DNA from: a virus
Length of the DNA stretch: 64,000 bases
Virus record (IMG/VR): IMGVR_UViG_3300025030_000076
Coordinates: 16,306-80,305 of that record
Reading direction: 5' to 3' (one strand)
The notes under the pieces: model-generated
Told to the model about the DNA's origin: nothing
Database searches by the model: none
What the model saw: only the letters and a program-made list of their open reading frames with translations
Shown here: piece by piece, positions 26,980-64,000 of the stretch
Position numbering within the stretch: position 1 is the first letter of the stretch
Layout of the letters: every line of letters starts with the position of its first letter
Position numbers and translations under genes: made by a program

Positions 26980-26985
26980 GTCCTG

Positions 26986-27723: not shown

Positions 27724-27809
27724 AAATGAGTGCGACGATGTACACTCCGCTCATACCCTAGTTAGACCCCTGTCTTGCTGGCAGGGTATCACCCAAAAGG
27801 AGAAAAAAC

Positions 27810-28182: not shown

Positions 28183-28214
28183 GGCTACCTTGCCAGCCGA
28201 GAAGTGAGAAATAA

Positions 28215-28448: not shown

Positions 28449-28450
28449 GT
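28323..28450 (+). repeat. attC-like site 2
   Basis: GCCGAAC..CCTGCACCTGACGCTTGG..CCAAGCGCAGGTAAAGC..GTTAGGT. Confidence 0.85.
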
Positions 28451-28455
28451 GGCTT

Positions 28456-43090: not shown

Positions 43091-43296
43091 TATTCACCTT
43101 CCTTAGCCGTTTTGATTTTCTTCGGCTGTTCTATTTTTGGTTTCTCATACAGGCCGCTTGCAAGCATCCCGGCCTCATCTATTCCAAGTTCCTTCCAGAG
43201 TTCCGCACGCTCGGCGAAATCTTCGTCCATCAGGTCGCGGGCGGGTATGTGTATGAGCGCGTCACCCCGGCCAATGTAATGCAATTTAATTGCCAT
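43090..43296 (-). CDS. Hypothetical protein
   Basis: IPARDL motif; coupled to neighbours. Confidence 0.6.
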   Translation of the reverse strand: MAIKLHYIGRGDALIHIPARDLMDEDFAERAELWKELGIDEAGMLASGLYEKPKIEQPKKIKTAKEGE

Positions 43297-43306
43297 GTTT
43301 GTCTCC

Positions 43307-43714
43307 TTACAATCCTACGCGGCGCGTCACCATCGTGATCTCCTCTTCGATTGCCTTCGGAAGTTTCGCGACTTCCTCCTCCTGCACGTCGCGCAGAAGG
43401 TTCCAGCGCCCTTCGTGCATCCAGGCTTGTTCCAAGCCATAGGCGTTACCCACGACATATTTTGTATATGGTGTATCGTTGCGCGTGGTATAGCCGTTTG
43501 TGTTCGGTATAATCATCCAACCACCGCCGAGCCTGCCTGTGCGGATATATCTCTGCCCCGGTCGCTCAGGCGGGTAAATCTTCATCCGGCGGACAATCGC
43601 CTGTGATGTCTGATAGATTTGCAAGCGCCCGATTTTCGGGATCTCCGCCGACAAATCCTGCAAGCCTCGGCGCACAATATCCGCGTTGTTGATCTGGATG
43701 GATAATTGCGTCAT
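43307..43714 (-). CDS. Head-tail joining protein (HK97 gp10-like)
   Basis: RTGRLGGGW...N.TPY..YV motif. Confidence 0.7.
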   Translation of the reverse strand: MTQLSIQINNADIVRRGLQDLSAEIPKIGRLQIYQTSQAIVRRMKIYPPERPGQRYIRTGRLGGGWMIIPNTNGYTTRNDTPYTKYVVGNAYGLEQAWMHEGRWNLLRDVQEEEVAKLPKAIEEEITMVTRRVGL

Positions 43715-44142
43715 AGGTTTATCTTCTGTTTCACATTCTCAAGCATGGCTCGGTAGCCGACGCAATCCACGCTAGAGTAGATATATACGGGCAGAAATTC
43801 CCATCGCAAAATCCCAAAAGTGTCAATCGAGCCGTCAAAGAAGCGGCTGGTGGTCGTGATTTCGGTTAGGAGCGCCGTGTCAACCAGGTCTACAATCGGC
43901 AGGAGTGCGGCGATGTTCTGCGCAAGGTCGGTATGCGGCGTCAGGATGTCAACGGCAATTGTCGCAAGGTGTTGCATCGTCCCGGTCTCGCTGATCTCGG
44001 TCATTGAGGTCATAAGATACGTCAGTGCAAAAATCCGTTCGTTGATATTTTCCTGCGGCGTCGCGGGCGCGGCTCCGATGCCCGCCACCGCCGCCACGAC
44101 CTCAGCAACTTCCGTTACCGCTGTGGTATAGTCCTGCGTCAC
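43711..44142 (-). CDS. Tail terminator/completion-like protein
   Basis: Position and size. Confidence 0.55.
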   Translation of the reverse strand: MTQDYTTAVTEVAEVVAAVAGIGAAPATPQENINERIFALTYLMTSMTEISETGTMQHLATIAVDILTPHTDLAQNIAALLPIVDLVDTALLTEITTTSRFFDGSIDTFGILRWEFLPVYIYSSVDCVGYRAMLENVKQKINL

Positions 44143-45083
44143 GTAATCCTCACATAAGGACAGAGGAGCTTTTCAACATCCGGGTCGAGCGCCGGGATGG
44201 TTAGCGTAATCGTGCCAACGCTGGACGCCCCGGCCTGTCCAAGCGCGGTGTTGAAGCGTTTATATTCGCGATTGCTTTGCAGGATACAAGCCAGCACAAC
44301 AGTTTTCGGAACCGACGCCCAGCCGAATGAGGCGGTGACTTTCACGCCCTTTTTTGTGCCAGGAAACGAGTAATCTCCCTCAGGTGTGGTTTCTATCATC
44401 TGGTAAGGCCAGCCATCCAGCGTCGCGTTGAATGATGTCAAGTCGTAGTCTGTCGTCGCCCAAGTCGTTTCATACGTTCTGTCCCCGTCCTCATCTGTGA
44501 CAAGCGTCAGCCCGCTTGAGGTTGAGATGTCATCCACGAACATCAGGTCGCCTTCGTCAGCGGTGTAATATCTCGTTTCGGATGCGGAGAAGAAGCGGCG
44601 GGCGCATTTGTTGTCTATCAGGCGCGAGACGGCTTCGATGATGGTTTCCAAAATCTCATCATGGGTCGTGTTCGAGAAATTCAGCACGTCAGACGATTTG
44701 AGTTGCGCCAGCGTGACGTAGCCGTTTGTCATCCCCGTTCCGGCGGTCGTATTCGTGGATGTTGGCGCGGCGGTCAGGCCGGTACAAGTGCCGTTTGCAA
44801 TGGCAATATTCAGCGTGTCATCATTGGCGACCGCGATATGTTTTGTCAGGACTACATTCGCGCCGCTGCCGGATACCAAAAACAGCGCCGCCACATCCAC
44901 ATCGAAGGCCAGCGCCGTGCGTATCAGCCCGCCAACAATGGAGGCGGTATCTGCTGAAGTGACGGCGACTGAGATAGCCTTCGGCGTGTTTGCCATGCCG
45001 AGCGCGGTCACGGTCACAGTAGCATTCCCCGAGCCGGTGACTGTCCCGACGACGGTCGCGGTTTCAACTTGTTTTGTGGTCAT
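44139..45083 (-). CDS. Head-tail connector with extra N-terminal beta domain
   Basis: GYVTLAQLK...AVSRLID..C.RRF...FGW..VP. Confidence 0.75.
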   Translation of the reverse strand: MTTKQVETATVVGTVTGSGNATVTVTALGMANTPKAISVAVTSADTASIVGGLIRTALAFDVDVAALFLVSGSGANVVLTKHIAVANDDTLNIAIANGTCTGLTAAPTSTNTTAGTGMTNGYVTLAQLKSSDVLNFSNTTHDEILETIIEAVSRLIDNKCARRFFSASETRYYTADEGDLMFVDDISTSSGLTLVTDEDGDRTYETTWATTDYDLTSFNATLDGWPYQMIETTPEGDYSFPGTKKGVKVTASFGWASVPKTVVLACILQSNREYKRFNTALGQAGASSVGTITLTIPALDPDVEKLLCPYVRIT

Positions 45084-45245
45084 GCTGTTCCCATAGTGGT
45101 AAGTAGCACGCCTAGTATTTGGTTAAGTTCTTTTATGGCTTCATCGCGTCCACATGAACAATGCCGATCACAGCTAAATACCCAAAAAGTACAATGCTTC
45201 GAATGGTATTTCAGCATCTTGTCAAGCGCCTTTGTTTTGGGTGCT

Positions 45246-46001
45246 TTAGTTTTCTTGGTTGTCATTTATTACAGGCTCTCCCGTATTGTGAAAATCACTC
45301 ACGCTATCCCAAGCAATGAAATCGGCGCTGGATGTGGGAATGTCGCCAGCCACATGACCAGCTATACAGGAGCGGTCTACAAACGCTTCGTAACCAGCAG
45401 CCCGCGCGTATTCGTAGAAGCGCCGATCCTCCCCGCCGCCTGAAGTCTCGTTGTCGCAGGCAAACCACAAGCCATCACCCTGGTCGGGTACTTTGGCGCG
45501 GATGTCCTCAAAGACAGTCCGGTGTATCAGCGTGCAGGCGGTCGCGGTGAAGCCGACAGAGACAAGCGCATCGGGGGGGCAGGGGTCTATCAAGAACGGC
45601 CCAAACTTGATCCACTCTTTATGATCGTAGAACCATTCGCGAGTATCATTGATTCTCATCACATAATGGCCTTCATCTCTATCGTAGGATTTCCAAATCT
45701 GTGGGACGACCGGGTTATGTCGCATGAACACCAGCGCCGATATAAGGGGCTTATCCCAGGACAGTAATCGCTTCAATGTTTCAGGGACGAAAACAACATC
45801 GTGGTGCGTCGAGAATATCCATTCGGCGTCGGTTGCGAGAAACTCCCGCACAATATCATTCCAGACGACACGAACCGAGCCAGCGCCGCTCTGCTTAAAT
45901 GTCCGCTTTGCGCCATCAGGCAAGAGCAGGTTTACCCACGAGTGAACGCACGACCACGGAGGCGGCGCGCCAGACGAGGGAACCCAATGGAATATGTGCA
46001 A
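45246..46001 (-). CDS. GT-A fold (GT2-like) glycosyltransferase
   Basis: HHDVVF (DxD-like), TACTLIHRTVF, GEDRRF, terminal GH. Confidence 0.75.
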   Translation of the reverse strand: MHIFHWVPSSGAPPPWSCVHSWVNLLLPDGAKRTFKQSGAGSVRVVWNDIVREFLATDAEWIFSTHHDVVFVPETLKRLLSWDKPLISALVFMRHNPVVPQIWKSYDRDEGHYVMRINDTREWFYDHKEWIKFGPFLIDPCPPDALVSVGFTATACTLIHRTVFEDIRAKVPDQGDGLWFACDNETSGGGEDRRFYEYARAAGYEAFVDRSCIAGHVAGDIPTSSADFIAWDSVSDFHNTGEPVINDNQEN

Positions 46002-46059
46002 GATAAAACGCTTTCCGGGGGAGGCAATTGCTCGCCTCCCCCATTACTTATCAGTAGTG

Positions 46060-46497
46060 TTAGACGGTTACGACTTCGATGCTGGATGCTGTTGGCGGAC
46101 GATTGATGCCGTTGTACAGTTCCACCACGCACGAATGCGGGACGGCTGTCGAGAGCAGTGAGCCACCGGAGACAAGCAGCCAGGGCGTACCCGCTGAAAT
46201 AGGTACATCCACTTCCAGCGTGACCGAGGTGCTCGATAGCACGCCGGAGGTCACAGCGGCCAGAGATGCGCTTGCGATAGCAGCGTAAGTTGCGCCGGAT
46301 GTGGACGCCTGCCAGGGTCCAATACCCGCCGAAAGTGCGGCGGTCGTTGCGGCGCCGTTACCGAAATTGAAGATGAAGTGCGCGCGGGAGTATCCGGTCG
46401 CGTCGACCTTTGTTCCGACCAGCGCACCAACTTGTCCGCCGCTGGCTGCTACTGCAACCATCGACTTCTGGACATCAGGATTCTTGTTGCGTGACAT
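46060..46497 (-). CDS. Head decoration/cement-like protein
   Basis: Directly after the capsid gene; VDATGY motif; GAGG RBS before MSRNK. Confidence 0.6.
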   Translation of the reverse strand: MSRNKNPDVQKSMVAVAASGGQVGALVGTKVDATGYSRAHFIFNFGNGAATTAALSAGIGPWQASTSGATYAAIASASLAAVTSGVLSSTSVTLEVDVPISAGTPWLLVSGGSLLSTAVPHSCVVELYNGINRPPTASSIEVVTV

Positions 46498-46508
46498 GTC
46501 ATCACCTC

Positions 46509-48575
46509 TTATGCAGCGTTGGTCAGATAGTAGAATGCTTCGCTCTGAAGTACTCCGCCACCGCGGAAGATAGAGGCGAAGATACCGATTTGCCCGGTTG
46601 CCATGTACAGGTAGGGGTTGCGCTGTACGACCATGCCCGGCTTTTCCACTACTGCGTAGTAGGAGAAATTGCCGAACACGACGCACTTGGCTGAGGCTGT
46701 GGTATACGGGTCAAGGTCGTCATCAATGACAGCCTTGTAGCCGAAGAAATCGCCATCCTGCGGGGTCTGCACGTATGCAAACGGGACAGCCGATGTTCCG
46801 CCACTGCCTTTGAGATACCATTTGGTCTTATTCGCCATGAGCATGGCGGACTCGGACGGCACGTTATACCCGCCGCCGAGATAGCCGATCAGGGCCGAAA
46901 GTTCTGAAGGCAGAATGACATCGGTCGTGGCGGTCGTGTTTGCAACCGTCGCGCCGGTCACGATACCCTCAGGCTGCGCCGTGCCTGTGCCTGTGGTGTA
47001 GATGGTGTTCTCGGTGTTGGCAACCGCACGACCCAGGGCATTGGTAAACCATGCTTCCCAGTTCGTGCCGTTGTACATCAAGAACTCTTCATTCATCTTG
47101 GTCAGCTTGGTGTACTTGTACAAGATGAGGTCTTTCTGCGATACCGTGCCCTCATTCTCATCGTATGTACCAGCCTCAGCCGTCAGGACGAAATCGGTTA
47201 GCTTGGTGTCTTCACGCGGGACCAACAGGTGATCGGAAGGGGTCGTCAGGAACGTGCAAGGAACCTGCCGCGCCCACGACATAATGTCGCGCTTGGCGAT
47301 GATCTGGTTGTACAGGGGATCAGGAACCAGGAATCCACCGCTTGCTCCGGTCGTGATGTTCCAGGCCGCCTTGCCTGCCTTGATGTTGTCGAAGGACGAG
47401 TCGGGGCGGATCAGCCCTTGATTTTCCTGCCCGGTCTTGAGCCAGGACTTGAATGCTCCGATACCATCGTTGTCATCGTCGGTCGGCTCGGTGGGGTGGT
47501 AGAACTTCTGCGGCCCGTGCTCCTTCAATTCCTCAATGGCCTTTTTGTACCCGGCGTCCTCAGCAGCTTTCAATTCTGCCGCCTTCTGCAATTCCGCCTG
47601 GGTTTTCGCTTCGCGCATTGCAAGCGCGTCTGCGACCGCCTTATCAACGGCGGATTTGATTTCTTCTTCCATGATGTTCTCCCTTTGTTTGGTAACAGGT
47701 TGATTGGTTGGTTTAGTTTGGTTATACTCCTCAACGGGCAACGCCGTATGGGAAGTTAGTAACGATTTAATTGGTAGTATCTGGTTGGTCTTGCGGAATT
47801 CTGCCGGGGTAGGGGTCAGTGACGCGTCCAGACCAAGAGGCCAGCGCGTGATTTCCCACACGCCGCTCTTGATTGCTTTGCGGTCTACAAGGTGCGAAGC
47901 TGTGCCGGATGACCAGGCTAATTTCCCCGCAAGTCCCAGTTCCGCGATTGTCTTTTCGTATTCATTACGCGCTTCGATTACCACCTCGGCAAACACTCCA
48001 ACGTCATCAATGGTAAGCGTCGCTTTATTGGATAGCGGCTCGGTGTATTTCACTTCGATGTTGTGCTTTTTGATCTGGATCGGCAGGCGGTGGTTGAACC
48101 ATACATCAGACTGTTTTGCATCGCCGTAGTTGGCCCTTTTCGTGAAATAGTCGCCCGCCAGGTCTGTATTCTCTGCATCCCTGAAACTGATTAGATAACC
48201 CCCTAGTTTGACCGCACCGCCGTCCAATGACGTGGCTTTGACCGCATCGCCGGGGTAGATATATTCCTCATCCAGCGATTTGCCCTCCATCATCGGCATT
48301 TCACCCCCTGGCTTTTCACACTCAGCGCCGTTTTCCACCATGATGTCATGCACGGTCTGGAACGCCTCTGTTTCTTTGCGCGTGTGCCGCGCGCCGATTT
48401 TCAGGAAATGCTTGACCGCATCTTCCACAGACATCCCGTAGAATGACTTTTTTTCTCCCCACATAGACATGCACGCGGCGGCGGCTTCGTCCTGTTCTTT
48501 CCCCTCTTCCGTCATGGCGGACATACACGCGCTCATCCATTTGTCTTTATCGTCGTATTCCGAAACGTTCGGCAT
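46509..48575 (-). CDS. Prohead protease-major capsid (HK97 fold) fusion
   Basis: DL.GDYF, NH, WSSG, SLTPTPAE protease motifs; GGFLVP, GTGTAQPEGI, FGNFS capsid motifs. Confidence 0.9.
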   Translation of the reverse strand: MPNVSEYDDKDKWMSACMSAMTEEGKEQDEAAAACMSMWGEKKSFYGMSVEDAVKHFLKIGARHTRKETEAFQTVHDIMVENGAECEKPGGEMPMMEGKSLDEEYIYPGDAVKATSLDGGAVKLGGYLISFRDAENTDLAGDYFTKRANYGDAKQSDVWFNHRLPIQIKKHNIEVKYTEPLSNKATLTIDDVGVFAEVVIEARNEYEKTIAELGLAGKLAWSSGTASHLVDRKAIKSGVWEITRWPLGLDASLTPTPAEFRKTNQILPIKSLLTSHTALPVEEYNQTKPTNQPVTKQRENIMEEEIKSAVDKAVADALAMREAKTQAELQKAAELKAAEDAGYKKAIEELKEHGPQKFYHPTEPTDDDNDGIGAFKSWLKTGQENQGLIRPDSSFDNIKAGKAAWNITTGASGGFLVPDPLYNQIIAKRDIMSWARQVPCTFLTTPSDHLLVPREDTKLTDFVLTAEAGTYDENEGTVSQKDLILYKYTKLTKMNEEFLMYNGTNWEAWFTNALGRAVANTENTIYTTGTGTAQPEGIVTGATVANTTATTDVILPSELSALIGYLGGGYNVPSESAMLMANKTKWYLKGSGGTSAVPFAYVQTPQDGDFFGYKAVIDDDLDPYTTASAKCVVFGNFSYYAVVEKPGMVVQRNPYLYMATGQIGIFASIFRGGGVLQSEAFYYLTNAA

Positions 48576-48597
48576 TTTGTCCCTTTGCGTATTAACG

Positions 48598-48649
48598 CAA
48601 AAAGCCGGTTATCTTTCCCGACCCATTTCGAGTCGAAAGATAACCGGCT
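48598..48649 (-). terminator. Terminator-like hairpin in the capsid gene leader
   Basis: AGCCGGTTATCTTTC...GAAAGATAACCGGCT-TTTT. Confidence 0.7.
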
Positions 48650-48746
48650 ATAACCTGGGGTTGTATTAGTTAAGCACTGTCTGTGTCAACACGTATTCAG
48701 TGCCTTAAACTTCGGCATTCCTGCCTGCAAGCATTATAACACAGAA

Positions 48747-49016
48747 TTAGATTTTATGTTCTGTCAAGTACCTTTTGGTCTTGCGTATCGCCACGTCTTT
48801 CGCGATGTTGGCAAAATCCTTTGACCTTACAAAATCACCTGCGAATCTGTATACCCAGGTATATCCATACCCACCTATTTTCACCTTTAATAGATATGCA
48901 AACACATCGTCAGGCAGTGGAGGCTTGTAATAATCAAACATTTCTGTGTATCGGTGGGTAATATCCTCTAACCCTACAAACTCAATATCGTTCTCAATAT
49001 CGTTATCGTTGCCCAT
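48747..49016 (-). CDS. Hypothetical protein
   Basis: ORF with RBS. Confidence 0.5.
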   Translation of the reverse strand: MGNDNDIENDIEFVGLEDITHRYTEMFDYYKPPLPDDVFAYLLKVKIGGYGYTWVYRFAGDFVRSKDFANIAKDVAIRKTKRYLTEHKI

Positions 49017-49161
49017 TACTCAACTTCCTTTCTTCCAACATTCTTTGCAGTCGCGGCGGTGCTTGTCCAGCGCCCGCCAGCGGTGGGTAACTAAAGCACG
49101 GTCATAAATTATCCACCCAATCTCACAGATATAAATCATAAAACGATATGACCACATAGCT

Positions 49162-49839
49162 CTATTTCAAAAGCCTCTTCGTTTTAGCCGTGTCACGCGG
49201 CATATAGAACGGCATCGGGATGTGGTGGTCTGGCTCCATGATGATCTCAGATTTGCTCCGGTAGTGGCTGATGATCCTGCGCGCAAGTTCCAGCATCGTG
49301 ACCGGCGTATCATCCCCCACGTCATACGCCTGCCCGCGCTCGCCCCGTAGCAGGATCGCCCACAGCCAGCGGCCAAGTTCTGCGCCATACATATATGACC
49401 GCACACAAGACCCGTCGCCCCAAATCTTGAGCGGCTCGCCTGCCTTCGCCGCCTGGACAAATTGGGTGTATGCCTTGCCATCGTCTAGGCGCTCGCCGTA
49501 GAAGGTGAACAGGCGCGCAATGACTACATCGATGCCGCTGTCCAGGCACTCTTTTTCCCAATCGAGTTTATTCTGCCTGTACTCGGTATCGTTCTCATCG
49601 TGGTAGACGATCCCGCTCGAAGCGTATAGCACGCGGACACCGAATGGCTGGCTGAATTCCAGGACTTCATACGGCGAGATATTCGCAAGGTGTACGATGT
49701 AATCCCAGGTCATCCATTCCCAGTGTCGTAGTTCGTAGTCGCTTTTGCCGAAGTAACTGATACGTAAATCGGGCGGGGCGGTCTGCCGCATCCATGAACC
49801 GCAGAAGCCGGTCCCGCCTGTGACTAAAACTTTATCCAT
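49162..49839 (-). CDS. NAD-dependent sugar epimerase/reductase (extended SDR)
   Basis: TGGTGFCG, YxxxK, GDG..RSY. Confidence 0.9.
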   Translation of the reverse strand: MDKVLVTGGTGFCGSWMRQTAPPDLRISYFGKSDYELRHWEWMTWDYIVHLANISPYEVLEFSQPFGVRVLYASSGIVYHDENDTEYRQNKLDWEKECLDSGIDVVIARLFTFYGERLDDGKAYTQFVQAAKAGEPLKIWGDGSCVRSYMYGAELGRWLWAILLRGERGQAYDVGDDTPVTMLELARRIISHYRSKSEIIMEPDHHIPMPFYMPRDTAKTKRLLK

Positions 49840-50980
49840 TGAAATACTTCCGTATTACTTCGACTTGATAGTCTCGCATGTCCGGGGTGATTCCTGGGAA
49901 TACGCCAATCCAAATACCGCGCTCATATATTAAATCGGCTCCATCCAAATTACCTACCACACGATAATCTACGCCATTTATCAATTTTCGGTAAGCTGGT
50001 TGCCGTAATAAATTACCAGCCATCACAGGTCTACTGCCTACACCGTGCTCGTCAAGATAACGCGCCAATTCGTTACGTCTTTCTGTCAAGAACGCAAAAC
50101 CAAACCATGACGGATTGCTACCAGGAGTAGCTTGAACTATCTCAATCGGCAAATCCTTCAAACCTTCGTTCAAGTAAGCCCAATTCTCGCGGCGCTTCTG
50201 TATAAAACCTTCTAATCTATCTAATTGCGCTACACCTACAGCGGCGGCTAAGTCGTTAGCTTTGAGGTTCCATCCGATACGACTGTAAATATATTTATGA
50301 TCGACTTCGTAGTTGAAGCGTTTTCCACATGTATTATCTTTACCTGGTTCACAGAAACAATCCCGCCCCCAGTCGCGATAACTCTCGATGACCTTCCTCA
50401 GCCGCGGGCTGTCTGTTAGCACCGCGCCTCCCTCCCCGGTAGTGATATGATGCGCCGGGTAGAATGAGACGGTAGACATTATGCCGCGACGACCAACCAT
50501 TTGCCCGTTGATTGTGCTCCCTACCGCGTCGCAGCAATCTTCGATAGTTGGATACCAATCACATATACCAGACAGATCAACAGGGTTTCCGAGTGCATGC
50601 GCCATAATGACAGCGCGTGTTTTATCGCTGATGGCTTCCCAAACATTCGCCATATTAATATTATTCAGCGTCTTTGGGTCACTATCCACGAACACCGGCA
50701 CTAGCCCAAGCTGGATGATGCAATTGACCGTCGTGGGGAAGTTCACCGCCGTCGTGATGACTTCGCTTCCTTTTGGCAGTTCCAGCGCAGCCAATGCCAG
50801 CAGATTTGCGGATGACCCGCTATTGCACAGGATCGCCTCACGCGCGCTCATGAATCGGGCAAAGCCGCGCTCGAAGCGGTTCGTCCAGATGAAGCCGCCA
50901 TAGCTCTGCGAGTTTGCGACCTGCATCACGTTATCCGCTTCTTCCTTTCCAGTCACTTGCCCCGAAATAGGGACTTTCAT
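49832..50980 (-). CDS. rfbH: CDP-4-keto-6-deoxyglucose 3-dehydrase (E1)-like enzyme, DegT family
   Basis: NSGSSANL, EDCCDA, SFYPAHHITTGEGG (His in place of the Schiff-base Lys) and DWGRDCFC...NTC Fe-S motif. Confidence 0.85.
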   Translation of the reverse strand: MKVPISGQVTGKEEADNVMQVANSQSYGGFIWTNRFERGFARFMSAREAILCNSGSSANLLALAALELPKGSEVITTAVNFPTTVNCIIQLGLVPVFVDSDPKTLNNINMANVWEAISDKTRAVIMAHALGNPVDLSGICDWYPTIEDCCDAVGSTINGQMVGRRGIMSTVSFYPAHHITTGEGGAVLTDSPRLRKVIESYRDWGRDCFCEPGKDNTCGKRFNYEVDHKYIYSRIGWNLKANDLAAAVGVAQLDRLEGFIQKRRENWAYLNEGLKDLPIEIVQATPGSNPSWFGFAFLTERRNELARYLDEHGVGSRPVMAGNLLRQPAYRKLINGVDYRVVGNLDGADLIYERGIWIGVFPGITPDMRDYQVEVIRKYFNG

Positions 50981-51452
50981 TGCACACCTCCATTGAGTAG
51001 CAGGTGTACAACGACACTCTACGGTTGAAAATTATTTTATTTCCTGTTTTACTGCGATAACTCGTAAAGCAAAGGACTTACGAAACAATTAGTAATCGCC
51101 TTATATGTGGTAATAATAGAATACCAGAGAGAGAAGAAACAGTATTGTGCTGATCGCTCCGCAAATATCGCATAGGGGCGGGTCTGGTTCTAAATCTCCC
51201 ATTCTCTTATCGGGCGGTATTAGAGCAATACCTATTAAACCAATTACCAAGGCCAACAAAATAGATATACCTGTTAACATAGTTTTCCTTTCTTGCCGCC
51301 AGCGTCAACGCGCTAGACAGGCGAACATGATTGTATAAGTTGTATTATTATAATTGAGGCGATTAGAATCATAACGGCTCTTGAAATCACCTCCACCAAT
51401 CCAAAGCATCCTGGTTTATCACTGTTCATTTTCTTCCTTTCTGGATGAGGCG

Positions 51453-52589
51453 TTACCCATCCCACTCCATAAGAGCCTGTAAATCATCAATCTTAGGCGT
51501 CATGTCCTGCATGTCATCTGTCCTGATAGGGTTGCCCGATGCCATTACGCGCGGGAGCTGCTGCCAGTCGGGGTCTACGAATACCTCAACTATCATCGGA
51601 GCAAAGTCCAGACATTTGCAGAAGTTTGACAAATCCATGCCCCTCAGCGGCATGTACACAAAGCGATACGCCTCCGCAATCGCTTCGATGCTGGGGAGCG
51701 TCAGCCCGCTTTGTGGGTTCGCTCCTGTCACGCGCCCGAAGCGCGCAAGCTGTCCCACTCGAATACTGTTATAGCCACCGTTGTTCATCACAAAGAAGAT
51801 AATCGGCAATCTCAGTCGCCGGATCGTCTCAAGTTCCTGCGCGTTCATGGCAAAGCCGCCGTCGCCCGTCACGCAGATGGTGCGCCGCCCGGATGCGAGA
51901 GCAGAGCCGAGAGCCATCGGAATATCAGCGCCCATTGCGCCAATCGTGCAGACGTTGGAGATTCGCTGCCCCGCCTTGACTTTATATGCCTGAAAGAACA
52001 CGGTTGGCGCGTTGCCCGATGAGCCGAGGGCGAATACGTCATCGGGATGGCTGAATTCATGAAGTAAAGACATCAGCCGAAACGGATTAACATACTGTGC
52101 CCACTTGTGAACATCCATAGTTTCATGCACCCAGCCGTCCAGTTCCGGGCGGAAGCGGGCGTAGAGCGCCTTGCACCAGTTGAGCCAATCGCGATGAGGC
52201 GGGGCAAGGGATGGAAGAAAATCAATATCGTCTCTACAGTCAAGGGTCTGCGAAACATGGTAACGCTTCGGGAACTTCTGCGCTTCCGCCTCATCAATGT
52301 CATACACATAGATTTGAGCATTCGGCGCAAAGCGGTCGTAGTCGTAGGCGACCTGTTCGCCGTCCAGCCGCGCGCCGAAGCAATAGAGATGGGTCGCTTT
52401 TTGCGTCGCAATATTCGCGGCGCGTTGCCCGAAGATTCCGGGGCGGCCTATAAACACAGGTGAGTTTTCAGGGAGTAAGTCCGCCGCCATCCAAGTTGTG
52501 CAAATCGGGATGTTCAGACTGCATAGATGTTCGATGAGCGCAGGGTTATTGCGGATGCCGTTACCGAGAATTATCACTGGCTTATACAT
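51453..52589 (-). CDS. ThDP-dependent enzyme, central and C-terminal domains (acetolactate synthase/YerE-like)
   Basis: GRPG...QR.AN, GARLD, GDGG...NNGGY ThDP-binding motif. Confidence 0.85.
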   Translation of the reverse strand: MYKPVIILGNGIRNNPALIEHLCSLNIPICTTWMAADLLPENSPVFIGRPGIFGQRAANIATQKATHLYCFGARLDGEQVAYDYDRFAPNAQIYVYDIDEAEAQKFPKRYHVSQTLDCRDDIDFLPSLAPPHRDWLNWCKALYARFRPELDGWVHETMDVHKWAQYVNPFRLMSLLHEFSHPDDVFALGSSGNAPTVFFQAYKVKAGQRISNVCTIGAMGADIPMALGSALASGRRTICVTGDGGFAMNAQELETIRRLRLPIIFFVMNNGGYNSIRVGQLARFGRVTGANPQSGLTLPSIEAIAEAYRFVYMPLRGMDLSNFCKCLDFAPMIVEVFVDPDWQQLPRVMASGNPIRTDDMQDMTPKIDDLQALMEWDG

Positions 52590-53091
52590 CGGCGGCCTGC
52601 ACATCCATTGGAATATCGAGCCAAGCACCGCCGCGCCTGCCTTCCTTAGCTGCGGTAATGCAGTTGTCTAACTCAATCATCGCCTCTACCGCGCTTTGTG
52701 GTTGCGCCACGTATTTCGTTATCGGTCTCACCATTTCAATCGTCGGCCCTTCCTGCGTCCCGCGTGAGCGCATCCCAGGTAGAGCCAGCCACTTGACCAT
52801 AACCTGCCCGGATATAAATAGAACAGGCACGCTATCCAGCCACGCCGCAAGGCAGGGGGTCATGGCATTGGTAACGCCGGGTCCGCTCGTCACAAGGCAC
52901 ACGCCAAAACCCTTGTATTGTGCATACCCGACCGCGGCATACCCGGCTGATTGTTCATGGAGACAGCATACGGCGCGCAATCCCGACGCGCCCAGCGCAT
53001 CCACCAGCGGACCGGAGCCACCGCCGGGGAGGTAGAATACGGTGGAAACTTCACTTTTCAGTCTTTCCCAAATTGCTTGTGATACATTCAT
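52582..53091 (-). CDS. ThDP-dependent enzyme, N-terminal (PYR) domain
   Basis: LHEQSAGYAA, TSGPG.TN, DIPMDVQ. Confidence 0.85.
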   Translation of the reverse strand: MNVSQAIWERLKSEVSTVFYLPGGGSGPLVDALGASGLRAVCCLHEQSAGYAAVGYAQYKGFGVCLVTSGPGVTNAMTPCLAAWLDSVPVLFISGQVMVKWLALPGMRSRGTQEGPTIEMVRPITKYVAQPQSAVEAMIELDNCITAAKEGRRGGAWLDIPMDVQAADV

Positions 53092-54104
53092 GTTTCGATC
53101 AGGGGATTGGTAATCCCGGCCTTTCGTATATTTTCGATAAGTCTCTGTCTTTGACCTTGACTCATTATTAATATCGGCGCGGCGTTGGTAGGTCGTTCCT
53201 GTACCGGCTTGCCGTTGTACGTCTGCCCACGGTACGCGGGATCATTGTCAATGTAGTCCAAGATGTTCAATTCCACCTGTGCCAGCAGATGCCACGTAAT
53301 ATCACCCATGCCCCACACGTTGAGCGGCAAGCCCTCAAGCGTCCTGAGCCTGTCCACGCGGGCGGATATATTGTCTGTGATGTGCTTCGCTGACTCCTGC
53401 GCCACGTCCAGCCGCCTGAATTGCAACTGGTACGCGGGCGCGTTCTCAAGCTCGTACTTCCGCACGTCTATCAATTCGAAGCCGTGCCGGTATCCCAAGT
53501 CGAGATAGTTTCGCAGCGTGAAATGGTTGATGTGCTTCGTGTTGAAATCCAGAATCGGCATTTTCCAGTGTTGCAAAAGCCCCGTCGCGTCCGGCCCATC
53601 TATAATGAGTAGGCCGTCAGGCGCAAGCGCGCCGCTGATGCGCTCCATCGTTTCGGGCAGATCGTAGACGTGCTCAACAACGTGTGAGGCGTAGATAAGG
53701 TCACATTGCTGGGGCAGGGGGGCGCCCGCGCCCACGCAGACGGCGTTGATATATCCCCTGTCCCGCAACATATCTACGATGATGCTCCGACCATCGTCTC
53801 CGTTGCCGCCGAAGTCCACAATGACGGCCTCTCTCTCGTGCTTCGCCAGACCGCTTATCACGACCGCGTCCATTTTTAGCCGCTCGATATTGGATGGGTT
53901 GTTGATGCCATAACCGTAGTATTTCAGGTAATACTCATTGAGCATCGCCTGATTGAAATCCCCGTCGCCGTAGAGCATCGAACAGGCGTAACAGGTATAC
54001 CAGATGATCTCGGACGGCAAGGGCCACGAATCGGGCACGCGGTAGGGCATACGGAATACTTCTGTGCGGGAGGGGTGTTCACAGACGGGGCAGGGGCGGG
54101 TCAT
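53088..54104 (-). CDS. Class I SAM methyltransferase-like protein with sugar C-methyltransferase-like architecture
   Basis: N-terminal CPVC/CYAC, VDFGG, SHVVEH, HINHFT, C-terminal VWGMG/YIDND. Confidence 0.75.
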   Translation of the reverse strand: MTRPCPVCEHPSRTEVFRMPYRVPDSWPLPSEIIWYTCYACSMLYGDGDFNQAMLNEYYLKYYGYGINNPSNIERLKMDAVVISGLAKHEREAVIVDFGGNGDDGRSIIVDMLRDRGYINAVCVGAGAPLPQQCDLIYASHVVEHVYDLPETMERISGALAPDGLLIIDGPDATGLLQHWKMPILDFNTKHINHFTLRNYLDLGYRHGFELIDVRKYELENAPAYQLQFRRLDVAQESAKHITDNISARVDRLRTLEGLPLNVWGMGDITWHLLAQVELNILDYIDNDPAYRGQTYNGKPVQERPTNAAPILIMSQGQRQRLIENIRKAGITNPLIET

Positions 54105-54307
54105 TCTTCCTCCACGAAAGAAGAATTTGCCCAATAATAGACAATTCCGTAATTTCTTGATATACCCTCGTAATTCTGTTCAACAGTAACCCACTCAAGC
54201 CATCTGGTTTCAGAGACATGATAGTTTTCGGTTGTAACCGGGAACCACGCAAACCACCTTTTTATTCTTTTTTCACCAACCTGCGGAATTATTTTAATAT
54301 TTCTCAC
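54101..54307 (-). CDS. Hypothetical protein (copy B only)
   Basis: FAWFPV...RWLEWV motif; coupled to neighbours. Confidence 0.65.
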   Translation of the reverse strand: MRNIKIIPQVGEKRIKRWFAWFPVTTENYHVSETRWLEWVTVEQNYEGISRNYGIVYYWANSSFVEEE

Positions 54308-55311
54308 TTTTGTATTCTTTCTGCGAATTCTTCGCGGTCATTGTCGATGTTATCTGGTAATGCCTGTATATAGTCGCACGTACCACAAGCCGCGTTCTCG
54401 CTCTTGCGCGCTTCCAGGTGCATCAGCCGGAAGTCACGCAATCGTGCGCCGTTCCAAATCTGGTACAGACTTTCATTCTTGATGTTCCCTAATTGGTGTA
54501 GATGGTATTGGTCATCGTTGCATATTGAAATGTCGCCGTTGGAGTTGATCGCGAGCATGTAGAGCACCAGCGGGCAGGCTATTTTCTGTGTGCGCGGCGT
54601 GCCATCAAAACTCTGATTAGTTCCCAGCTTCCAATCGAATTTGTCGGACGTACTCCAGCCATGCAGGTTTTCTATGGCGATGAAATCACAGCGGTCAGAG
54701 AAGTCGTCAAGGAATTTCTGCTTGTCGCCGTCCGTCAAACCCACGTCTGCTATCTTTGTTGACACCCGTGTACTCGTATCCCGGCTCCGCTCGAACAGGT
54801 CAAGCACACCATCCCTAAACTTTTCGTAATCCACTTTGACGCCTGCAATGTCGTAAAACATCTGCGCGTTTATGCCTGTTACACTCACGCCGATCATATC
54901 CAGCCCGCACGTTACCAGTTTGGCATTTAGTTCAGGCCGCAAAACATGACCATTTGTTTTCACCCATATACGCTCTGACACATTTGCATCCTTCATGTAG
55001 CGCACCATATCGGTAAAGCGGGGGTGTAGAGTTGGTTCGCCATCTTTATATAGATTCGCCTGCTTACATGGTCTGTCAAATTCTCGCAGGTCGTCCACGA
55101 TCTTGCAGAACAGTTCGTAACTCATTAGTACGTTCTTGCGCCCGTACTCACGCAGTAAGTCGGGGTGTCCAGTCGGGCAAAATTTGCATCTGTAGTTACA
55201 CGCGTTGCACGGATCAATAAAAAGCGTCCACGGCGCGGGCAATGGTACGACATCTATCAGCCGCTCCCGCCGCTCGCCGCGCAAGTCTTTCGCCTGAATG
55301 AGTTTAGCCAT
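54304..55311 (-). CDS. Radical SAM/SPASM protein (copy B)
   Basis: CNYRCKFC; C-terminal Cys motifs. Confidence 0.9.
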   Translation of the reverse strand: MAKLIQAKDLRGERRERLIDVVPLPAPWTLFIDPCNACNYRCKFCPTGHPDLLREYGRKNVLMSYELFCKIVDDLREFDRPCKQANLYKDGEPTLHPRFTDMVRYMKDANVSERIWVKTNGHVLRPELNAKLVTCGLDMIGVSVTGINAQMFYDIAGVKVDYEKFRDGVLDLFERSRDTSTRVSTKIADVGLTDGDKQKFLDDFSDRCDFIAIENLHGWSTSDKFDWKLGTNQSFDGTPRTQKIACPLVLYMLAINSNGDISICNDDQYHLHQLGNIKNESLYQIWNGARLRDFRLMHLEARKSENAACGTCDYIQALPDNIDNDREEFAERIQK

Positions 55312-55993
55312 TTTTTGAAAGCCACCCTCCGTCAACGGTAATAACCTGACCGTAAACGTATGTACTCGAAATTAGATACATCAGCGCCCCGGCTATCTCC
55401 TCCGGCTTCCCGAACCTGCCCGCGGGCGTGATGCTTTCAAGTAGCTTGCGCCGTTCGGGTGTTATGTATTCATCTACCATGCTAGTCTGCGTTAAACCGG
55501 GGCACACTGCATTGACCCGAATCAGCGGCGCGAGTTCGATTGCCATCGCCCGTGTGAGGCCGAGCAGACCATGTTTCGCGGCGACGTAGCCGGCTATGTT
55601 GCGTGCTCCCTGGAAGGCGGACGTAGAAAGGATATTGACGATATGCCCGCCGCCGTGCGCGAGCATGTGCCGGGCTGCTTCCTGGGACAGAAAGAACGGG
55701 ACGGTAAGCATCAACTCGATTTGTTCACGCCATCTTCCCGCGCTGTATTCGATAAGATTTTGATGATACTGCGAGCCTGCGTTGTTGACAAGGATGTCAA
55801 TACTACCAAGTTTGTCTATCACTTCAGATACAACCGGGTTACGTCCAAAAAAATCTGTCAGGTCAGCATGGATGAATAAATCACAGTCCGCCCTTGTCCT
55901 TCCTGCCACCGCGACGGTATGCCCTGCGTCCTTCAATGCACGGACGCATGCCGCGCCGATCCCGCGTGAGCCGCCGGTAACAAGGGCGATCAC
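55304..55993 (-). CDS. SDR oxidoreductase (copy B)
   Basis: TGGSRGIG, YVAAK. Confidence 0.95.
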   Translation of the reverse strand: MIALVTGGSRGIGAACVRALKDAGHTVAVAGRTRADCDLFIHADLTDFFGRNPVVSEVIDKLGSIDILVNNAGSQYHQNLIEYSAGRWREQIELMLTVPFFLSQEAARHMLAHGGGHIVNILSTSAFQGARNIAGYVAAKHGLLGLTRAMAIELAPLIRVNAVCPGLTQTSMVDEYITPERRKLLESITPAGRFGKPEEIAGALMYLISSTYVYGQVITVDGGWLSKNG

Positions 55994-56178
55994 TCGTCTG
56001 TACTTTCTAGCAACTCCAGCCGCTCGGCGGGTAGTTCGATTTCGGCTGGCGTCTCGTTGATGATCTCGATAGTAAATCGCCCATGACCGCTGAAATCATG
56101 TACGTAGTTTTCCTCAAACCAATATAGATCGGTTATTTCTTGTTTGTTGCCGTTTTGGTCTGTTGCAAATATCCTCAT
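55990..56178 (-). CDS. Hypothetical protein
   Basis: AAAGGA RBS; C-terminus shared with 2595-2855. Confidence 0.6.
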   Translation of the reverse strand: MRIFATDQNGNKQEITDLYWFEENYVHDFSGHGRFTIEIINETPAEIELPAERLELLESTDE

Positions 56179-56233
56179 GCCAATCCTTTCTACTCGATTC
56201 GATTATAGTCCGCATGTTCTAATTTTAAAAGTC

Positions 56234-56929
56234 TCAAAGTGTAACTACATTTCCGTCATCGTCTACAAGACCGTCGCCGCAGTTACCGCCCGGCGCACAT
56301 GCCAAGCCGCCGCCTTTCGGGGGTACGAAATCATGTTCAACCCACCACGACGCGCGATGTCTCTGCCCGCGCAGCCTCACGCAATCAGGACAAGATTCTT
56401 TTGTGTCGCTTATCTGCGTGAATGTAAGCATCTTATTCTTGGACCCGCGTAAGACTGCCTCATTGTAGAAGCCATCCAATCCGCTTGCGTACCCGTTCGC
56501 CCGCGCTAGCGCCTCCGCCGTTGCGTTCACGTCACCCTCTTTCCGTAATTCCCGCAAGTTCTCAAAGAGTTGATCCACGAAACCAAGCTGCGAATCCAGT
56601 TCTGCCCGCGCCCAGGCTGCGGTTTCTGCGTCAAGCGGTAGTTCCGCTCCCGCGTCCTGATACCCTGCGTCAGCCGCGGCGACATACGCCTTCGAGATAG
56701 CCGCAGCCATCAACGCCTTGTATATCGTGATATAGCCTGAGCTGGTCAGGTAATCATATATCGCATCGTGGATTTCGCCGCTCATCTCGGCGCGGATAGA
56801 GGTGTAATCGCCAGCCGCCTTGAGCGCGTGTAACTTCACGAACCGCCGCGCATCAGCGGACAGGTACGGCAGGACTTCCGGTACGGTCTGCACTGTGTCG
56901 AGCACGATCTTGGTCAATGCGTCAGTCAT
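56234..56929 (-). CDS. MuF-like minor head protein (copy B)
   Basis: Homolog of 2887-3582. Confidence 0.6.
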   Translation of the reverse strand: MTDALTKIVLDTVQTVPEVLPYLSADARRFVKLHALKAAGDYTSIRAEMSGEIHDAIYDYLTSSGYITIYKALMAAAISKAYVAAADAGYQDAGAELPLDAETAAWARAELDSQLGFVDQLFENLRELRKEGDVNATAEALARANGYASGLDGFYNEAVLRGSKNKMLTFTQISDTKESCPDCVRLRGQRHRASWWVEHDFVPPKGGGLACAPGGNCGDGLVDDDGNVVTL

Positions 56930-57107
56930 CCATCACCTCAAGGAAATACCAGGCGAGCAATTCGTCCTCATCGTCTATCTCCGGCGGACGGCGTACCGGC
57001 GCGTGCATAAGAAGGTAGCCAGCGGCCTCCGCTGCTGCCTCCTCCGCTCCGTTGTAGGGGATCGCAGCGTCGTAATTGATCGACTCGTCGTAGCTAGTGA
57101 TAGCCAC
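56922..57107 (-). CDS. Hypothetical protein
   Basis: Homolog of 3575-3760. Confidence 0.7.
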   Translation of the reverse strand: MAITSYDESINYDAAIPYNGAEEAAAEAAGYLLMHAPVRRPPEIDDEDELLAWYFLEVMDD

Positions 57108-57307
57108 TATTCCTCTTTCGGCATCGGCGCGACGGATGACACAATCACCAGCCGGTAATCGCCTGTGTCCTTACTCTGTGCCCACTGCGGCGCGAACACG
57201 ATCTGGAAGCCTGTCTCTTTGCATAGCTCCTGATAGAGTTCGACAAAGTCCTTCTCTGCGTACTTGCGCGGCGTCACTGCCGGGGCGGGGGTGGTTTTAC
57301 CTTTCAT
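57107..57307 (-). CDS. Hypothetical protein
   Basis: Homolog of 3760-3966. Confidence 0.7.
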   Translation of the reverse strand: MKGKTTPAPAVTPRKYAEKDFVELYQELCKETGFQIVFAPQWAQSKDTGDYRLVIVSSVAPMPKEE

Positions 57308-57627
57308 GGGGTCACTATCTCGCTTTCTTCCGCTGTGATTGCGGCGTCTCTGGCGGCGTTTGCGTCGACGTTGGCTTTGTACGACTTGGACGCGTCCAGA
57401 ATGGTACTGAGAACATACTTATCCAATATTGCCAGCTTCTCAGCCGCCGATAAGTCGGCATAGACACGCGGCGCTTCTGGCGTGCCGTGATTGCCCATAC
57501 CAACATCGAAAAGATAATGCGCTGCCTGGTCTGCTTTCTTATCAATGAGTGCGGTGGTCGCGCTGTATTGGAAACGGTACGCGGTCAGTCCTGCTGAGGG
57601 TGTGTTGGGTAGTCGAGTGAGTGCCAT
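57304..57627 (-). CDS. Hypothetical protein (fibre partner, copy B allele)
   Basis: Coupled ORF after the fibre gene. Confidence 0.6.
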   Translation of the reverse strand: MALTRLPNTPSAGLTAYRFQYSATTALIDKKADQAAHYLFDVGMGNHGTPEAPRVYADLSAAEKLAILDKYVLSTILDASKSYKANVDANAARDAAITAEESEIVTP

Positions 57628-57628
57628 A

Positions 57629-61920: not shown

Positions 61921-61929
61921 TTGTCCTCT

Positions 61930-63802: not shown

Positions 63803-63893
63803 TGCACCTCCGTTGTGCAGTGGTCGCGCTCCCGGATGCTTCAACATCGCGGGAGCAGCGCTTAGATTATTTGTTCTATTATAACACGTGACG

Positions 63894-64000
63894 TTATTCA
63901 TCAATACCTTTGACTGTGACAGTAATTGTCAGCGGCTCGCCAAGCGGCCCGCCGATTTCAACACTATCCCCATACCCGCGCTTTTTGCCGCGCTTGGACA
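63894..64000 (-). CDS. terS: Terminase small subunit, 3' end (partial)
   Basis: Matches the 3' end of 9889-10275. Confidence 0.7.
   Translation of the reverse strand, partial: SKRGKKRGYGDSVEIGGPLGEPLTITVTVKGIDE

Follow-up and report, generated by a model that had tools for sequence, protein, structure and literature searches.

A probable branched-sugar tailoring cassette in the head module of an uncultured tailed phage and a capsid-operon glycosyltransferase that may attach its product to the virion

Gene content and integrity of the cassette

The 80,305-bp IMG/VR virus record IMGVR_UViG_3300025030_000076 contains, within the 64,000 nucleotides analyzed here (bases 16306–80305 of the record, hereafter the window), a minus-strand cassette of seven intact genes, situated between the portal region and the capsid gene (Table 1). 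These encode a classical short-chain dehydrogenase/reductase (SDR), a radical S-adenosylmethionine (SAM) enzyme, a methyltransferase, the two subunits of a thiamine diphosphate (ThDP) enzyme, an RfbH-type dehydrase and a second, extended SDR. The original prediction, made from the sequence alone, had read these genes, together with a glycosyltransferase gene located after the capsid gene, as a system for making an unusual branched sugar and placing it on the phage capsid. Pfam, NCBIfam, PDB and motif checks recovered every gene that it had named, at the same coordinates and on the minus strand. In the order of transcription, all on that strand, the portal gene is followed by three open reading frames (ORFs) without a family match, then by the cassette and then by the head genes.

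The record comprises approximately 1.5 genome lengths, in which two related, diverged phage genomes lie head to tail with a period of 53.4–54.8 kb and 69–97% nucleotide identity; within the window this repeat is seen as positions 1–10000 against 53436–64000. The join may be biological or an assembly chimera of two strains, and the finding on the cassette is unaffected by it. The cassette studied here is that of copy B (window 45246–55993, which includes the head genes that follow it). Copy A has the same genes, of which the window shows only the classical SDR, the radical SAM enzyme and part of the methyltransferase, the rest being located upstream of the window (record positions 6916–18903); the whole cassette is therefore present in both copies, and not solely the SDR-radical SAM-methyltransferase part that had been noted in both. 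Copy B recurs in nature: metagenomes of groundwater, soil and sediment (20 runs, 14 studies) contained 94–99% of its sampled k-mers. Over the 17 kb from 43000 to 60000 of the window every bin was covered, with no insertions or deletions, by contigs from four independent runs; this contiguity rests on overlapping short contigs, with no single Logan contig spanning the whole. The sequence of the region, including the junction between the two ThDP genes, is genuine.

The two copies also allowed an estimate of selection. The ratio of nonsynonymous to synonymous substitution rates (dN/dS) between copies A and B was 0.03–0.21 for every gene for which it could be computed, and 0.07–0.20 for the cassette genes (0.20 for the classical SDR, 0.17 and 0.14 for the two ThDP halves); dS was saturated for the radical SAM gene, for which no ratio was computed. 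The genes with a computable ratio are intact and under purifying selection. As the dS of the sugar genes (1 or more) is far above that of the head genes (0.2–0.6), the cassette is mosaic relative to the head module, and the contrast points to exchange of the cassette between relatives.

The 3-dehydrase and the split ThDP enzyme

The dehydrase had been described as RfbH-like on account of a His-for-Lys replacement and a set of Fe-S cysteines, and our searches bore this out. The protein passed the cut-off of the NCBIfam RfbH equivalog NF011936 (450.2 bits; cut-off 423) and matched the Yersinia E1 enzyme (PDB 3BCX) along its length (2.6e-105 over residues 3–380); ColD-type chains matched only at ~1e-50. 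In the 3BCX alignment the segment VSFYPAHHIT (SFYPAHH at its core), in which His stands in place of the Schiff-base Lys, is identical, and the cysteines of the motif C150-X57-C208-X-C210-X7-C218 are aligned with those of 3BCX. Agnihotri et al. reportedly identified in 2004 a C-X57-C-X1-C-X7-C motif, whose spacing the phage cysteines match exactly, as the ligand set of the E1 [2Fe-2S] cluster, a motif said to set E1 apart from ColD, which has no cluster. Based on these matches the phage protein is predicted to be a bona fide RfbH/E1 3-dehydrase. It has no close counterpart among deposited phages, where a tblastn search with RfbH gave matches of at most 47% identity, the best being to a 2.5-kb Salmonella fragment.

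The ThDP enzyme proved to be of unusual construction. Where a single gene had been called at 51453–53091 we found two, encoding proteins of 169 and 378 residues, with the ATG of the second overlapping the stop codon of the first (ATGTATAA); as the norm for this family is a single polypeptide of ~560–620 residues, the phage form is a structural variant. The best PDB match to the middle+PP subunit was JanthE (8RPH; 153 bits, 1.2e-43), with PpYerE (5AHK) scoring 97.8 bits (7e-27) and the best true acetohydroxyacid synthase (AHAS), E. coli AHAS I (6LPI), 93 bits (2e-25). For the PYR subunit the order was PpYerE (93.5 bits, 1.2e-25), JanthE (80.7 bits, 1e-21) and the best AHAS (78.5 bits), and none of the NCBIfam acetolactate-synthase equivalogs, whose cut-offs are 509–1084 bits, gave more than ~110 bits. 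JanthE and PpYerE are YerE-like, ketone-accepting carboligases (PMC12247030). In the phage cassettes the ThDP gene is located near RfbH, and likewise in bacterial loci that also have a nucleotidyltransferase and a 4,6-dehydratase. The scores and the context thus go against a true acetolactate synthase, an identity that had been raised as a danger to the sugar reading, and indicate an enzyme that is by sequence and gene context nearer to the YerE-like group.

The separate PYR gene is found in copy A as well, and the two-gene split is kept in at least 12 related viral contigs. In L017 the halves are ~200 bp apart, and in another relative (L003) a GIY-YIG/NUMOD3 homing endonuclease gene (L003:7585–8571) is situated exactly between them (L003:7080–9692). 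Fused forms, which occur in L014, L123 and bacteria, have a linker of ~35 residues that the split form lacks. Three contigs of independent runs cross the junction in copy B without differences. Sequencing error, frameshift and pseudogene were considered as origins of the split and rejected, because copy A and many contigs share it, dN/dS is low, a gap or an endonuclease gene separates the halves in some relatives, and independent runs agree exactly at the junction. A homing endonuclease can reasonably be proposed to have created the split, by analogy with the nrdA gene of Aeromonas phage Aeh1, which Friedrich et al. in 2007 reportedly found to be split by the free-standing homing endonuclease mobE. 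The likeness lies in an enzyme gene divided into two co-oriented ORFs, both under selection, and in the endonuclease located between the halves in L003; in contrast to Aeh1 nrdA, the window has no endonuclease between the ThDP halves, and their stop and start codons overlap. Two small hydrophobic ORFs (~38 and ~59 residues; window 51000–51450, minus strand) are located between the ThDP and RfbH genes; as copy A shows no conservation there, they may not be genes.

A divided enzyme might suggest that the cassette is a captured fragment of a bacterial glycan cluster that the phage no longer uses, and truncated or fragmented versions are indeed found in relatives (ThDP pieces in L113 and L136, the methyltransferase only in L117). 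Against such decay are the low dN/dS of the computable cassette genes between two copies with saturated dS, the retention of the split in at least 12 contigs as two intact halves that have their catalytic motifs, and the identical sequence recovered from independent metagenomes, so that we consider disused cargo an extremely unlikely description of this cassette.

The methyltransferase, the radical SAM enzyme and the two SDRs

Pfam matched the methyltransferase only to Methyltransf_23; the Pfam zinc-binding and C-terminal C-methyltransferase domain families (Methyltransf_13 and Methyltransf_14) gave no match. Within its own family the N-terminal Cys4 ribbon is invariant and the C-terminal domain conserved, and the family profile gave modest PDB matches to KijD1 (5.9e-7) and TcaB9 (1.3e-4). 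An AlphaFold2 (AF2) model (pLDDT 85.5) was more informative: the top 17 Foldseek matches were all to KijD1, TcaB9 or MtmC (1e-14 to 1e-12, in alignments of ~418 columns), and generic methyltransferases appeared next, only at 1e-7, at least five orders of magnitude away. TcaB9, KijD1 and MtmC are NDP-4-keto-sugar C3-methyltransferases that share with the phage protein a three-domain architecture and a Cys4 zinc ribbon; they differ from it in that they act on dTDP-sugars, whereas the phage substrate would be a CDP-sugar, and their identity to it is only 15–17%. The model thus indicates a distant relative with TcaB9/KijD1/MtmC-type architecture and makes the protein a putative sugar C-methyltransferase, O-methylation being the alternative.

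The radical SAM enzyme belongs to no named subfamily: all NCBIfam equivalogs scored far below their cut-offs, and the names attached to it in the ESM Atlas were generic (radical SAM/SPASM). Among 24 homologs the invariant residues include C46, C50 and C53 (CX3CX2C) and, toward the C-terminus, C254, C272, C317 and C320; because only these four C-terminal cysteines are invariant, a single, twitch-like auxiliary cluster is suggested. The PDB search gave a weak match to the twitch region of BtrN. BtrN carries a twitch domain and performs a radical alcohol oxidation, and in the AprD4/AprD3 pair a radical diol dehydration is followed by reduction by an SDR. Close homologs number more than 300, on contigs of up to 40–60 kb. 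No relevant paper came up in a literature search for radical SAM enzymes of YerE- or dideoxyhexose-type pathways.

The short extended SDR is a candidate ketoreductase or epimerase. Full and reduced cassettes, described below, alike keep it, and in the reduced ones it is the only reductase; assigning the label YerF to one particular reductase of the cassette would be a guess.

The glycosyltransferase of the capsid operon

Searches with the glycosyltransferase protein alone found no match in Pfam, NCBIfam or PDB (phmmer), so that the earlier GT-A assignment was not upheld directly; it was upheld by family profile, AF2 model and Foldseek. An exhaustive HMMER search for the family yielded 866 cluster representatives, and Pfam matches among 72 homologs were to Anp1 (25), Glyco_tranf_2_3 (16) and Glycos_transf_2 (12). 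The family profile matched protein A197 of Sulfolobus turreted icosahedral virus (STIV) at 7.8e-8, and also Mnn9 and GlfT2. The AF2 model had a pLDDT of 94.3 and a pTM of 0.91, and its Foldseek matches were all GT-A enzymes, comprising the collagen glycosyltransferases LH3 and ColGalT1, STIV A197, SpsA and ppGalNAcT (each with probability 1.0) and mimivirus R699. The consensus of the family reads ARN...DxD...GED...GH, and the window protein has GGEDRRF and the C-terminal GH. Based on profile and model, we regard the product of the gene after the 145-residue protein as a predicted GT-A glycosyltransferase.

This family lies on the phage side, and has so far been found only in structural modules of uncultured phages: a tblastn search of 50,697 deposited phage genomes returned nothing, and none of the 80 bacterial loci around radical SAM homologs has a member of the family. 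No other glycosyltransferase was detected in the record, where Pfam Glycos_transf_2, and with it any GT2-family gene, was without a match even at an E-value of 0.1.

The glycosyltransferase gene follows that of a 688-residue head protein, whose N-terminal ~300 residues had no Pfam match and which is at best 27.5% identical to capsid proteins of deposited phages, and that of the 145-residue protein, which has no family match, consists of 23% Ser and Thr, and is 98.6% identical between the copies (dN/dS 0.03). The portal assignment made earlier was confirmed by Pfam; a MuF protein upstream and a protease part of a capsid fusion, which had also been named, found no support in Pfam or PHROGs. The capsid gene is immediately preceded by a promoter-like sequence with a structured leader (fold z = -5.15), and L009, L011 and L014 likewise have the promoter hexamers, the hairpin and its U-run ahead of their capsid genes. 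With this conserved promoter and leader in that position, the genes of the capsid, the 145-residue protein and the glycosyltransferase would form one unit that is probably co-transcribed, for which the leader may serve as an attenuator or antitermination target. A second promoter-like site precedes the first cassette gene, in 81 nt over which the two copies share 86% identity; the regional count of such sites is not above chance. The promoter layout supports co-expression of the glycosyltransferase with the head proteins, yet would leave room for independent expression of the cassette.

The location of this gene also bears on whether the sugar is put on a modified base of the phage DNA, as had been named among the alternatives in the original prediction. 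The phage does invest in DNA modification, with two DNA methyltransferase genes in its replication module (window 14616–29082, which also encodes RecT, a DnaB_2-type initiator and an RNase H-like exonuclease), and phage glycosyltransferases acting on hydroxymethylated bases are known (bioRxiv 10.1101/2023.12.21.572611 and PMC13326640). Such hypermodification found no support here and is in our view very unlikely: the glycosyltransferase gene belongs to the capsid operon rather than the replication module, the folds closest to that of its product are GT-A enzymes acting on proteins or glycans, and the record has neither a thymidylate-synthase-type hydroxymethylase nor a C5 DNA methyltransferase. 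A Tet/JBP search of the record was likewise empty, with an uninformative control.

Table 1. Features of the window, with positions on the 64,000-nucleotide stretch
Feature	Position	Strand	Basis or remarks
N6_N4_Mtase DNA methyltransferase	15932–16720		Replication module
Dam-like DNA methyltransferase	28456–29082		Replication module
GT-A fold glycosyltransferase (predicted)	45246–46001	minus	Family profile, AF2 model, Foldseek
145-residue Ser/Thr/Ala/Gly-rich head-module protein, candidate glycan acceptor	46060–46497	minus	Between capsid and glycosyltransferase genes; "decoration" label unverified
Head protein, 688 residues, with C-terminal HK97-fold major capsid domain	46509–48575	minus	Pfam Phage_capsid 5.8e-27; TIGR01554 2.1e-40
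Promoter-like TTGACA-17-TGTTATAAT and structured leader (strong hairpin, U-run)	48576–48770	minus	Directly upstream of capsid gene
89-residue ORF at cassette end	48747–49016	minus	No family match; weak homolog in L003
Short extended SDR, 225 residues, candidate ketoreductase or epimerase	49162–49839	minus	Pfam Epimerase 1.1e-16; GGTGFCG (GxxGxxG), YRQNK (YxxxK)
RfbH/DdhC (E1), predicted pyridoxamine phosphate (PMP) and [2Fe-2S]-type CDP-4-keto-6-deoxyglucose 3-dehydrase	49832–50980	minus	NF011936, 3BCX, motifs
ThDP enzyme, middle+PP subunit, 378 residues	51453–52589	minus	Pfam TPP_enzyme_M and TPP_enzyme_C; GDG-X24-NN (GDGGF...VMNN)
ThDP enzyme, PYR subunit, 169 residues	52582–53091	minus	Pfam TPP_enzyme_N 5.2e-30; catalytic Glu in LHEQ (HEQ motif)
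Methyltransferase, three-domain (Zn ribbon, class I methyltransferase, C-terminal Rossmann-like)	53088–54134	minus	Pfam Methyltransf_23 1.3e-13; Foldseek
Radical SAM enzyme with C-terminal SPASM/twitch region	54304–55311	minus	Pfam Radical_SAM 2.9e-14, SPASM 3.9e-13
Classical SDR, 229 residues	55304–55993	minus	Pfam adh_short_C2 4.5e-45; TGxxxGxG, NNAG and YxxxK motifs present
Promoter-like site TTTAAA-16-TATAAT	56202–56229	minus	Upstream of first cassette gene; 10/12 consensus positions
Portal B, 832 residues, with 2H-phosphoesterase insert	59422–61920	minus	Pfam Phage_portal and 2_5_RNA_ligase2

Portal B differs from the 658-residue portal of copy A by an insert at residues ~461–560 that resembles 2H phosphoesterases and 2'-5' RNA ligases. 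A free-standing RLIG1-like ORF (L003:5238–5834) was observed within the sugar cassette of L003, after the radical SAM gene. No tRNA genes were found.

Variation of the cassette among related viral contigs

We scanned IMG/VR with an alignment of the radical SAM enzyme, which gave 18 loci, and with an alignment of the closer glycosyltransferase sequences, which gave 62, and annotated these loci against the window proteins. The genes for the capsid, the 145-residue protein, the glycosyltransferase (sometimes with a second, paralogous one) and the adaptor are in constant order in ~45 viral contigs, in which the glycosyltransferase is constant and the cassette varies. The full cassette is found in the window and in L003/L103, L009/L131 and L011/L122, and, reordered and with a fused ThDP gene, in L014/L107. 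A reduced cassette that has RfbH, the extended SDR, the methyltransferase and the two ThDP genes and is missing the classical SDR and the radical SAM enzyme is found in five contigs (L120, L127, L134, L139 and L140), all but L120 having a second glycosyltransferase gene. The three contigs with decayed remnants were mentioned above, and L112 and L130 have no sugar genes between portal and capsid. Because the seven genes are not separated even where their order has changed (L014, L017), we regard the cassette as one functional unit. All of the cassette-bearing contigs of the phage's own lineage that reach past the capsid gene have the glycosyltransferase.

Two tandem paralogous glycosyltransferase genes follow that of the 145-residue protein in L106, L118, L126, L127 and L132–L140, with a reduced cassette wherever the upstream sequence is present. 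This arrangement suggests, for the sub-lineage that has it, a glycan of at least two residues or two acceptors.

In two more distant relatives (L116 and L119) the glycosyltransferase gene is situated among small ORFs, connector-like by size and position, with no recognizable capsid gene adjoining. This would fit glycosylation of another virion protein, such as the tail tube, a fibre or the portal, by the same chemistry and the same enzyme, and glycans on the tail tube as well as the capsid were reportedly found in mycobacteriophages by Freeman et al. in 2023. As the glycosyltransferase gene directly follows those of the capsid and the 145-residue protein in the ~45 contigs, we think an acceptor elsewhere in the virion quite unlikely, noting that this evidence does not discriminate among acceptors.

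Bacterial counterparts and dependence on the host

No prophage of this lineage was present among the best 80 matches in contigs of cellular genomes, where the radical SAM enzyme reached at best 50% identity. Its nearest cellular homologs (42–50% identity) were in metagenome-assembled genomes of Victivallaceae, Holophagales, Verrucomicrobia, Omnitrophica, Arcobacter, Sedimenticola and others. Nine of these loci, the closest (L023–L031), have a classical SDR gene directly upstream of that of the radical SAM enzyme, and each except the short L025 also has a ThDP gene, an RfbH or an extended SDR homolog in the same locus. The triplet of YerE-like ThDP enzyme, SDR and radical SAM enzyme, with RfbH, recurs in the glycan clusters of many bacterial phyla (L023–L034).

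Pfam scans of three loci, L027 (2453–15437), L030 (5597–15404) and L031 (2382–11737), identified nucleotidyltransferase and GT2 genes in each and a 4,6-dehydratase gene in L027 and L030. A NeuB-type enzyme is encoded in L027 and L031 and an HMGL-like one in L030; further genes encode a HAD phosphatase and methyltransferases in L027 and GtrA in L030. The bacterial ThDP homolog is fused (~600 residues) and adjoins RfbH, the nucleotidyltransferase and the 4,6-dehydratase. Based on this gene content the loci appear to be surface-glycan clusters for a longer-branched sugar of the erwiniose/caryophyllose kind (PMC9306805), and the SDR-radical SAM pair seems to be a conserved, uncharacterized part of YerE-type pathways, belonging to what is apparently an unstudied branched-sugar pathway.

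The phage version keeps only the tailoring steps of the bacterial pathway. The whole 80-kb record gave no match to a sugar-1-phosphate nucleotidyltransferase (NTP_transferase) or to the Fer2 and NAD_binding_1 domains of an E3-type reductase (AscD/DdhD), and its only epimerase/dehydratase-family match, the 225-residue extended SDR, scored far below the dTDP-glucose 4,6-dehydratase cut-offs. As nucleotidyltransferase, 4,6-dehydratase and E3 domains are all absent, the pathway must start from a host CDP-4-keto-6-deoxyhexose and draw on a host electron donor, which fits the dependence on a host NDP-4-keto-6-deoxyhexose that had been foreseen.

The resemblance to bacterial glycan clusters raises the question of whether the product is destined instead for the host surface, where host glycosyltransferases might put the new sugar in lipopolysaccharide, capsule or S-layer glycan, or the normal dideoxyhexose might be depleted, so that the receptor is changed and superinfection blocked, the capsid-operon glycosyltransferase being then unrelated. 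Besides the location of the closest cassette homologs in surface-glycan clusters with GT2 and GtrA genes, this would be consistent with a cassette that is outside the capsid promoter unit, has its own conserved promoter-like site and, as would befit an exchangeable accessory module, is mosaic and has diverged further than the head genes. It would require, however, a host glycosyltransferase that accepts a sugar foreign to the host, for the record has no visible Wzx, Wzy, GtrA/B or membrane glycosyltransferase. The cassette moreover interrupts the head module, on the strand of the late genes, away from an att site or immunity region, and in the phage's own lineage it is always accompanied by the phage glycosyltransferase where coverage allows this to be seen. 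The form of the proposal that involves lysogenic conversion is weakened because there is no tyrosine or serine integrase in the whole record. We consider remodelling of the host surface unlikely, while giving its supporting points due weight below.

Proposed pathway and fate of the sugar

We propose, with moderate confidence, that the phage turns a host CDP-4-keto-6-deoxyhexose into a modified branched sugar, which the glycosyltransferase of the capsid operon would attach to a head protein of the virion. The order of steps, the substrates and the products that follow are those that we infer from the enzyme families. The host would supply CDP-4-keto-6-deoxy-D-glucose, from which E1/RfbH would remove the 3-hydroxyl, with electrons from a host reductase, to give CDP-4-keto-3,6-dideoxyglucose. 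The TcaB9-type methyltransferase might then C-methylate a carbon alpha to the 4-keto group, and the two-subunit YerE-like enzyme would add an acyl branch at C4, in the simplest case an acetyl group from pyruvate, which is the simplest donor because the phage has no keto-acid-forming enzyme. The extended SDR may carry out a YerF-like keto reduction. In the full cassettes only, the radical SAM/SDR pair would add a further tailoring step, which could be a radical oxidation, or a diol dehydration followed by a reduction. Finally, the soluble GT-A enzyme would move the sugar onto the capsid protein or the 145-residue Ser/Thr-rich protein.

The original capsid-decoration interpretation is partly supported by the present searches, in its enzymology, in the YerE-like nature of the ThDP enzyme, in the reliance on a host precursor and in a GT-A gene that stays constant in the capsid operon while the cassette varies. 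Several points weigh against it. The relatives without a cassette (L112 and L130) still carry the glycosyltransferase, which can therefore work with a host sugar, so that its use of the cassette's product is something we infer; these relatives also count in favour of a host-surface role, as do the other points noted above. L017, a more distant cassette-bearing phage, has no glycosyltransferase of this family within 21 kb. The cassette is upstream of the capsid promoter, and it may have a promoter of its own and be moron-like, that is, an inserted module with its own promoter. The window glycosyltransferase has H66-x-D68 where the family consensus is DxD, D68 being invariant. E1 needs an E3-type reductase, of which the phage encodes none, and the supply of the CDP-sugar precursor by the host is presumed. 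The capsid and the 145-residue protein are both candidate acceptors only, and the roles given to the radical SAM enzyme and the classical SDR are guesses made by analogy. The probability that is left after these readings we assign to other uses of the cassette.

Relation to known systems

The closest chemical counterpart is the CDP-yersiniose A pathway of Yersinia pseudotuberculosis (DdhA-D, YerE and YerF), along with the related erwiniose and caryophyllose pathways (ErwE/F/I/J, MMAR_2332), with which the phage cassette shares E1/RfbH, a YerE-like ThDP enzyme and an NAD(P)H reductase. The logic of such pathways is C3 deoxygenation, then acyl branching at C4, then reduction (PMC12247030, PMC9306805). 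The phage genes differ in several respects: they are in a head module and not in an O-antigen cluster; they include none for making CDP-glucose, for 4,6-dehydration or for an E3 reductase, and no aldolase or NeuB-type supplier of a keto acid; the ThDP enzyme is split into two subunits; and a TcaB9-type C-methyltransferase and a radical SAM/SDR pair are extra to the pathways described.

Two other systems offer counterparts to the proposed use of the sugar. In some mycobacteriophages (Che8, Rita and others) the major capsid proteins bear covalently bound glycans, phage glycosyltransferases acting on structural proteins to produce a glycan coat (Freeman et al. 2023, cited in PMC11256854). In contrast to these, the phage studied here has a glycosyltransferase of an unrelated family, located within the capsid operon, and also carries genes predicted to tailor an unusual donor sugar of its own. 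The giant viruses (chloroviruses and mimivirus; PMC4691112) and STIV, with A197, use sugar-nucleotide tailoring enzymes and GT-A enzymes of their own for their own particles, and the phage glycosyltransferase counts STIV A197 and mimivirus R699 among its closest matches in sequence or fold, at only 11–13% identity. These are, however, viruses of eukaryotes or archaea, with other sugars and no E1/YerE chemistry.

Our literature search found no paper linking phages with yersiniose-type sugars or their pathway. The branched-sugar chemistry in bacteria, virion glycosylation in mycobacteriophages (PMC11256854) and the sugars of giant viruses (PMC4691112) are all known already; what is new is their combination in a tailed phage, together with the split YerE-type enzyme, the additional C-methyltransferase and radical SAM/SDR pair, the GT-A family of phage structural modules and the variation of the cassette.

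Implications

A naturally two-subunit YerE-like enzyme is of interest in itself, as YerE-like enzymes are sought as catalysts for tertiary alcohols (PMC12247030). Our survey also revealed a conserved module of ThDP enzyme, SDR and radical SAM enzyme (in some cases with the methyltransferase) near RfbH in the glycan clusters of many bacterial phyla, for which the phage version offers a convenient minimal set, and the phage chemistry, if it is as proposed, would be one that is also unstudied in bacteria. The need of the cassette for a host CDP-4-keto-6-deoxyhexose provides a testable prediction of the hosts of this lineage.

In its fullest form, which we can offer only tentatively, the proposal is that a widespread groundwater and soil siphophage lineage displays on its capsid an undescribed C-methylated, C4-acyl-branched and radical SAM-tailored 3,6-dideoxyhexose, attached by a phage-only GT-A enzyme, and that swapping of cassettes varies the capsid glycan in the manner of O-antigens, as a kind of serotype system. 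Were the proposed decoration of the capsid correct, virion glycosylation would extend beyond the actinobacteriophages and would be accompanied, as in the giant viruses, by virus-borne chemistry for an exotic donor sugar, with a bearing on the stability of the virion, on its adsorption, and on its recognition by hosts, grazers and immune systems.

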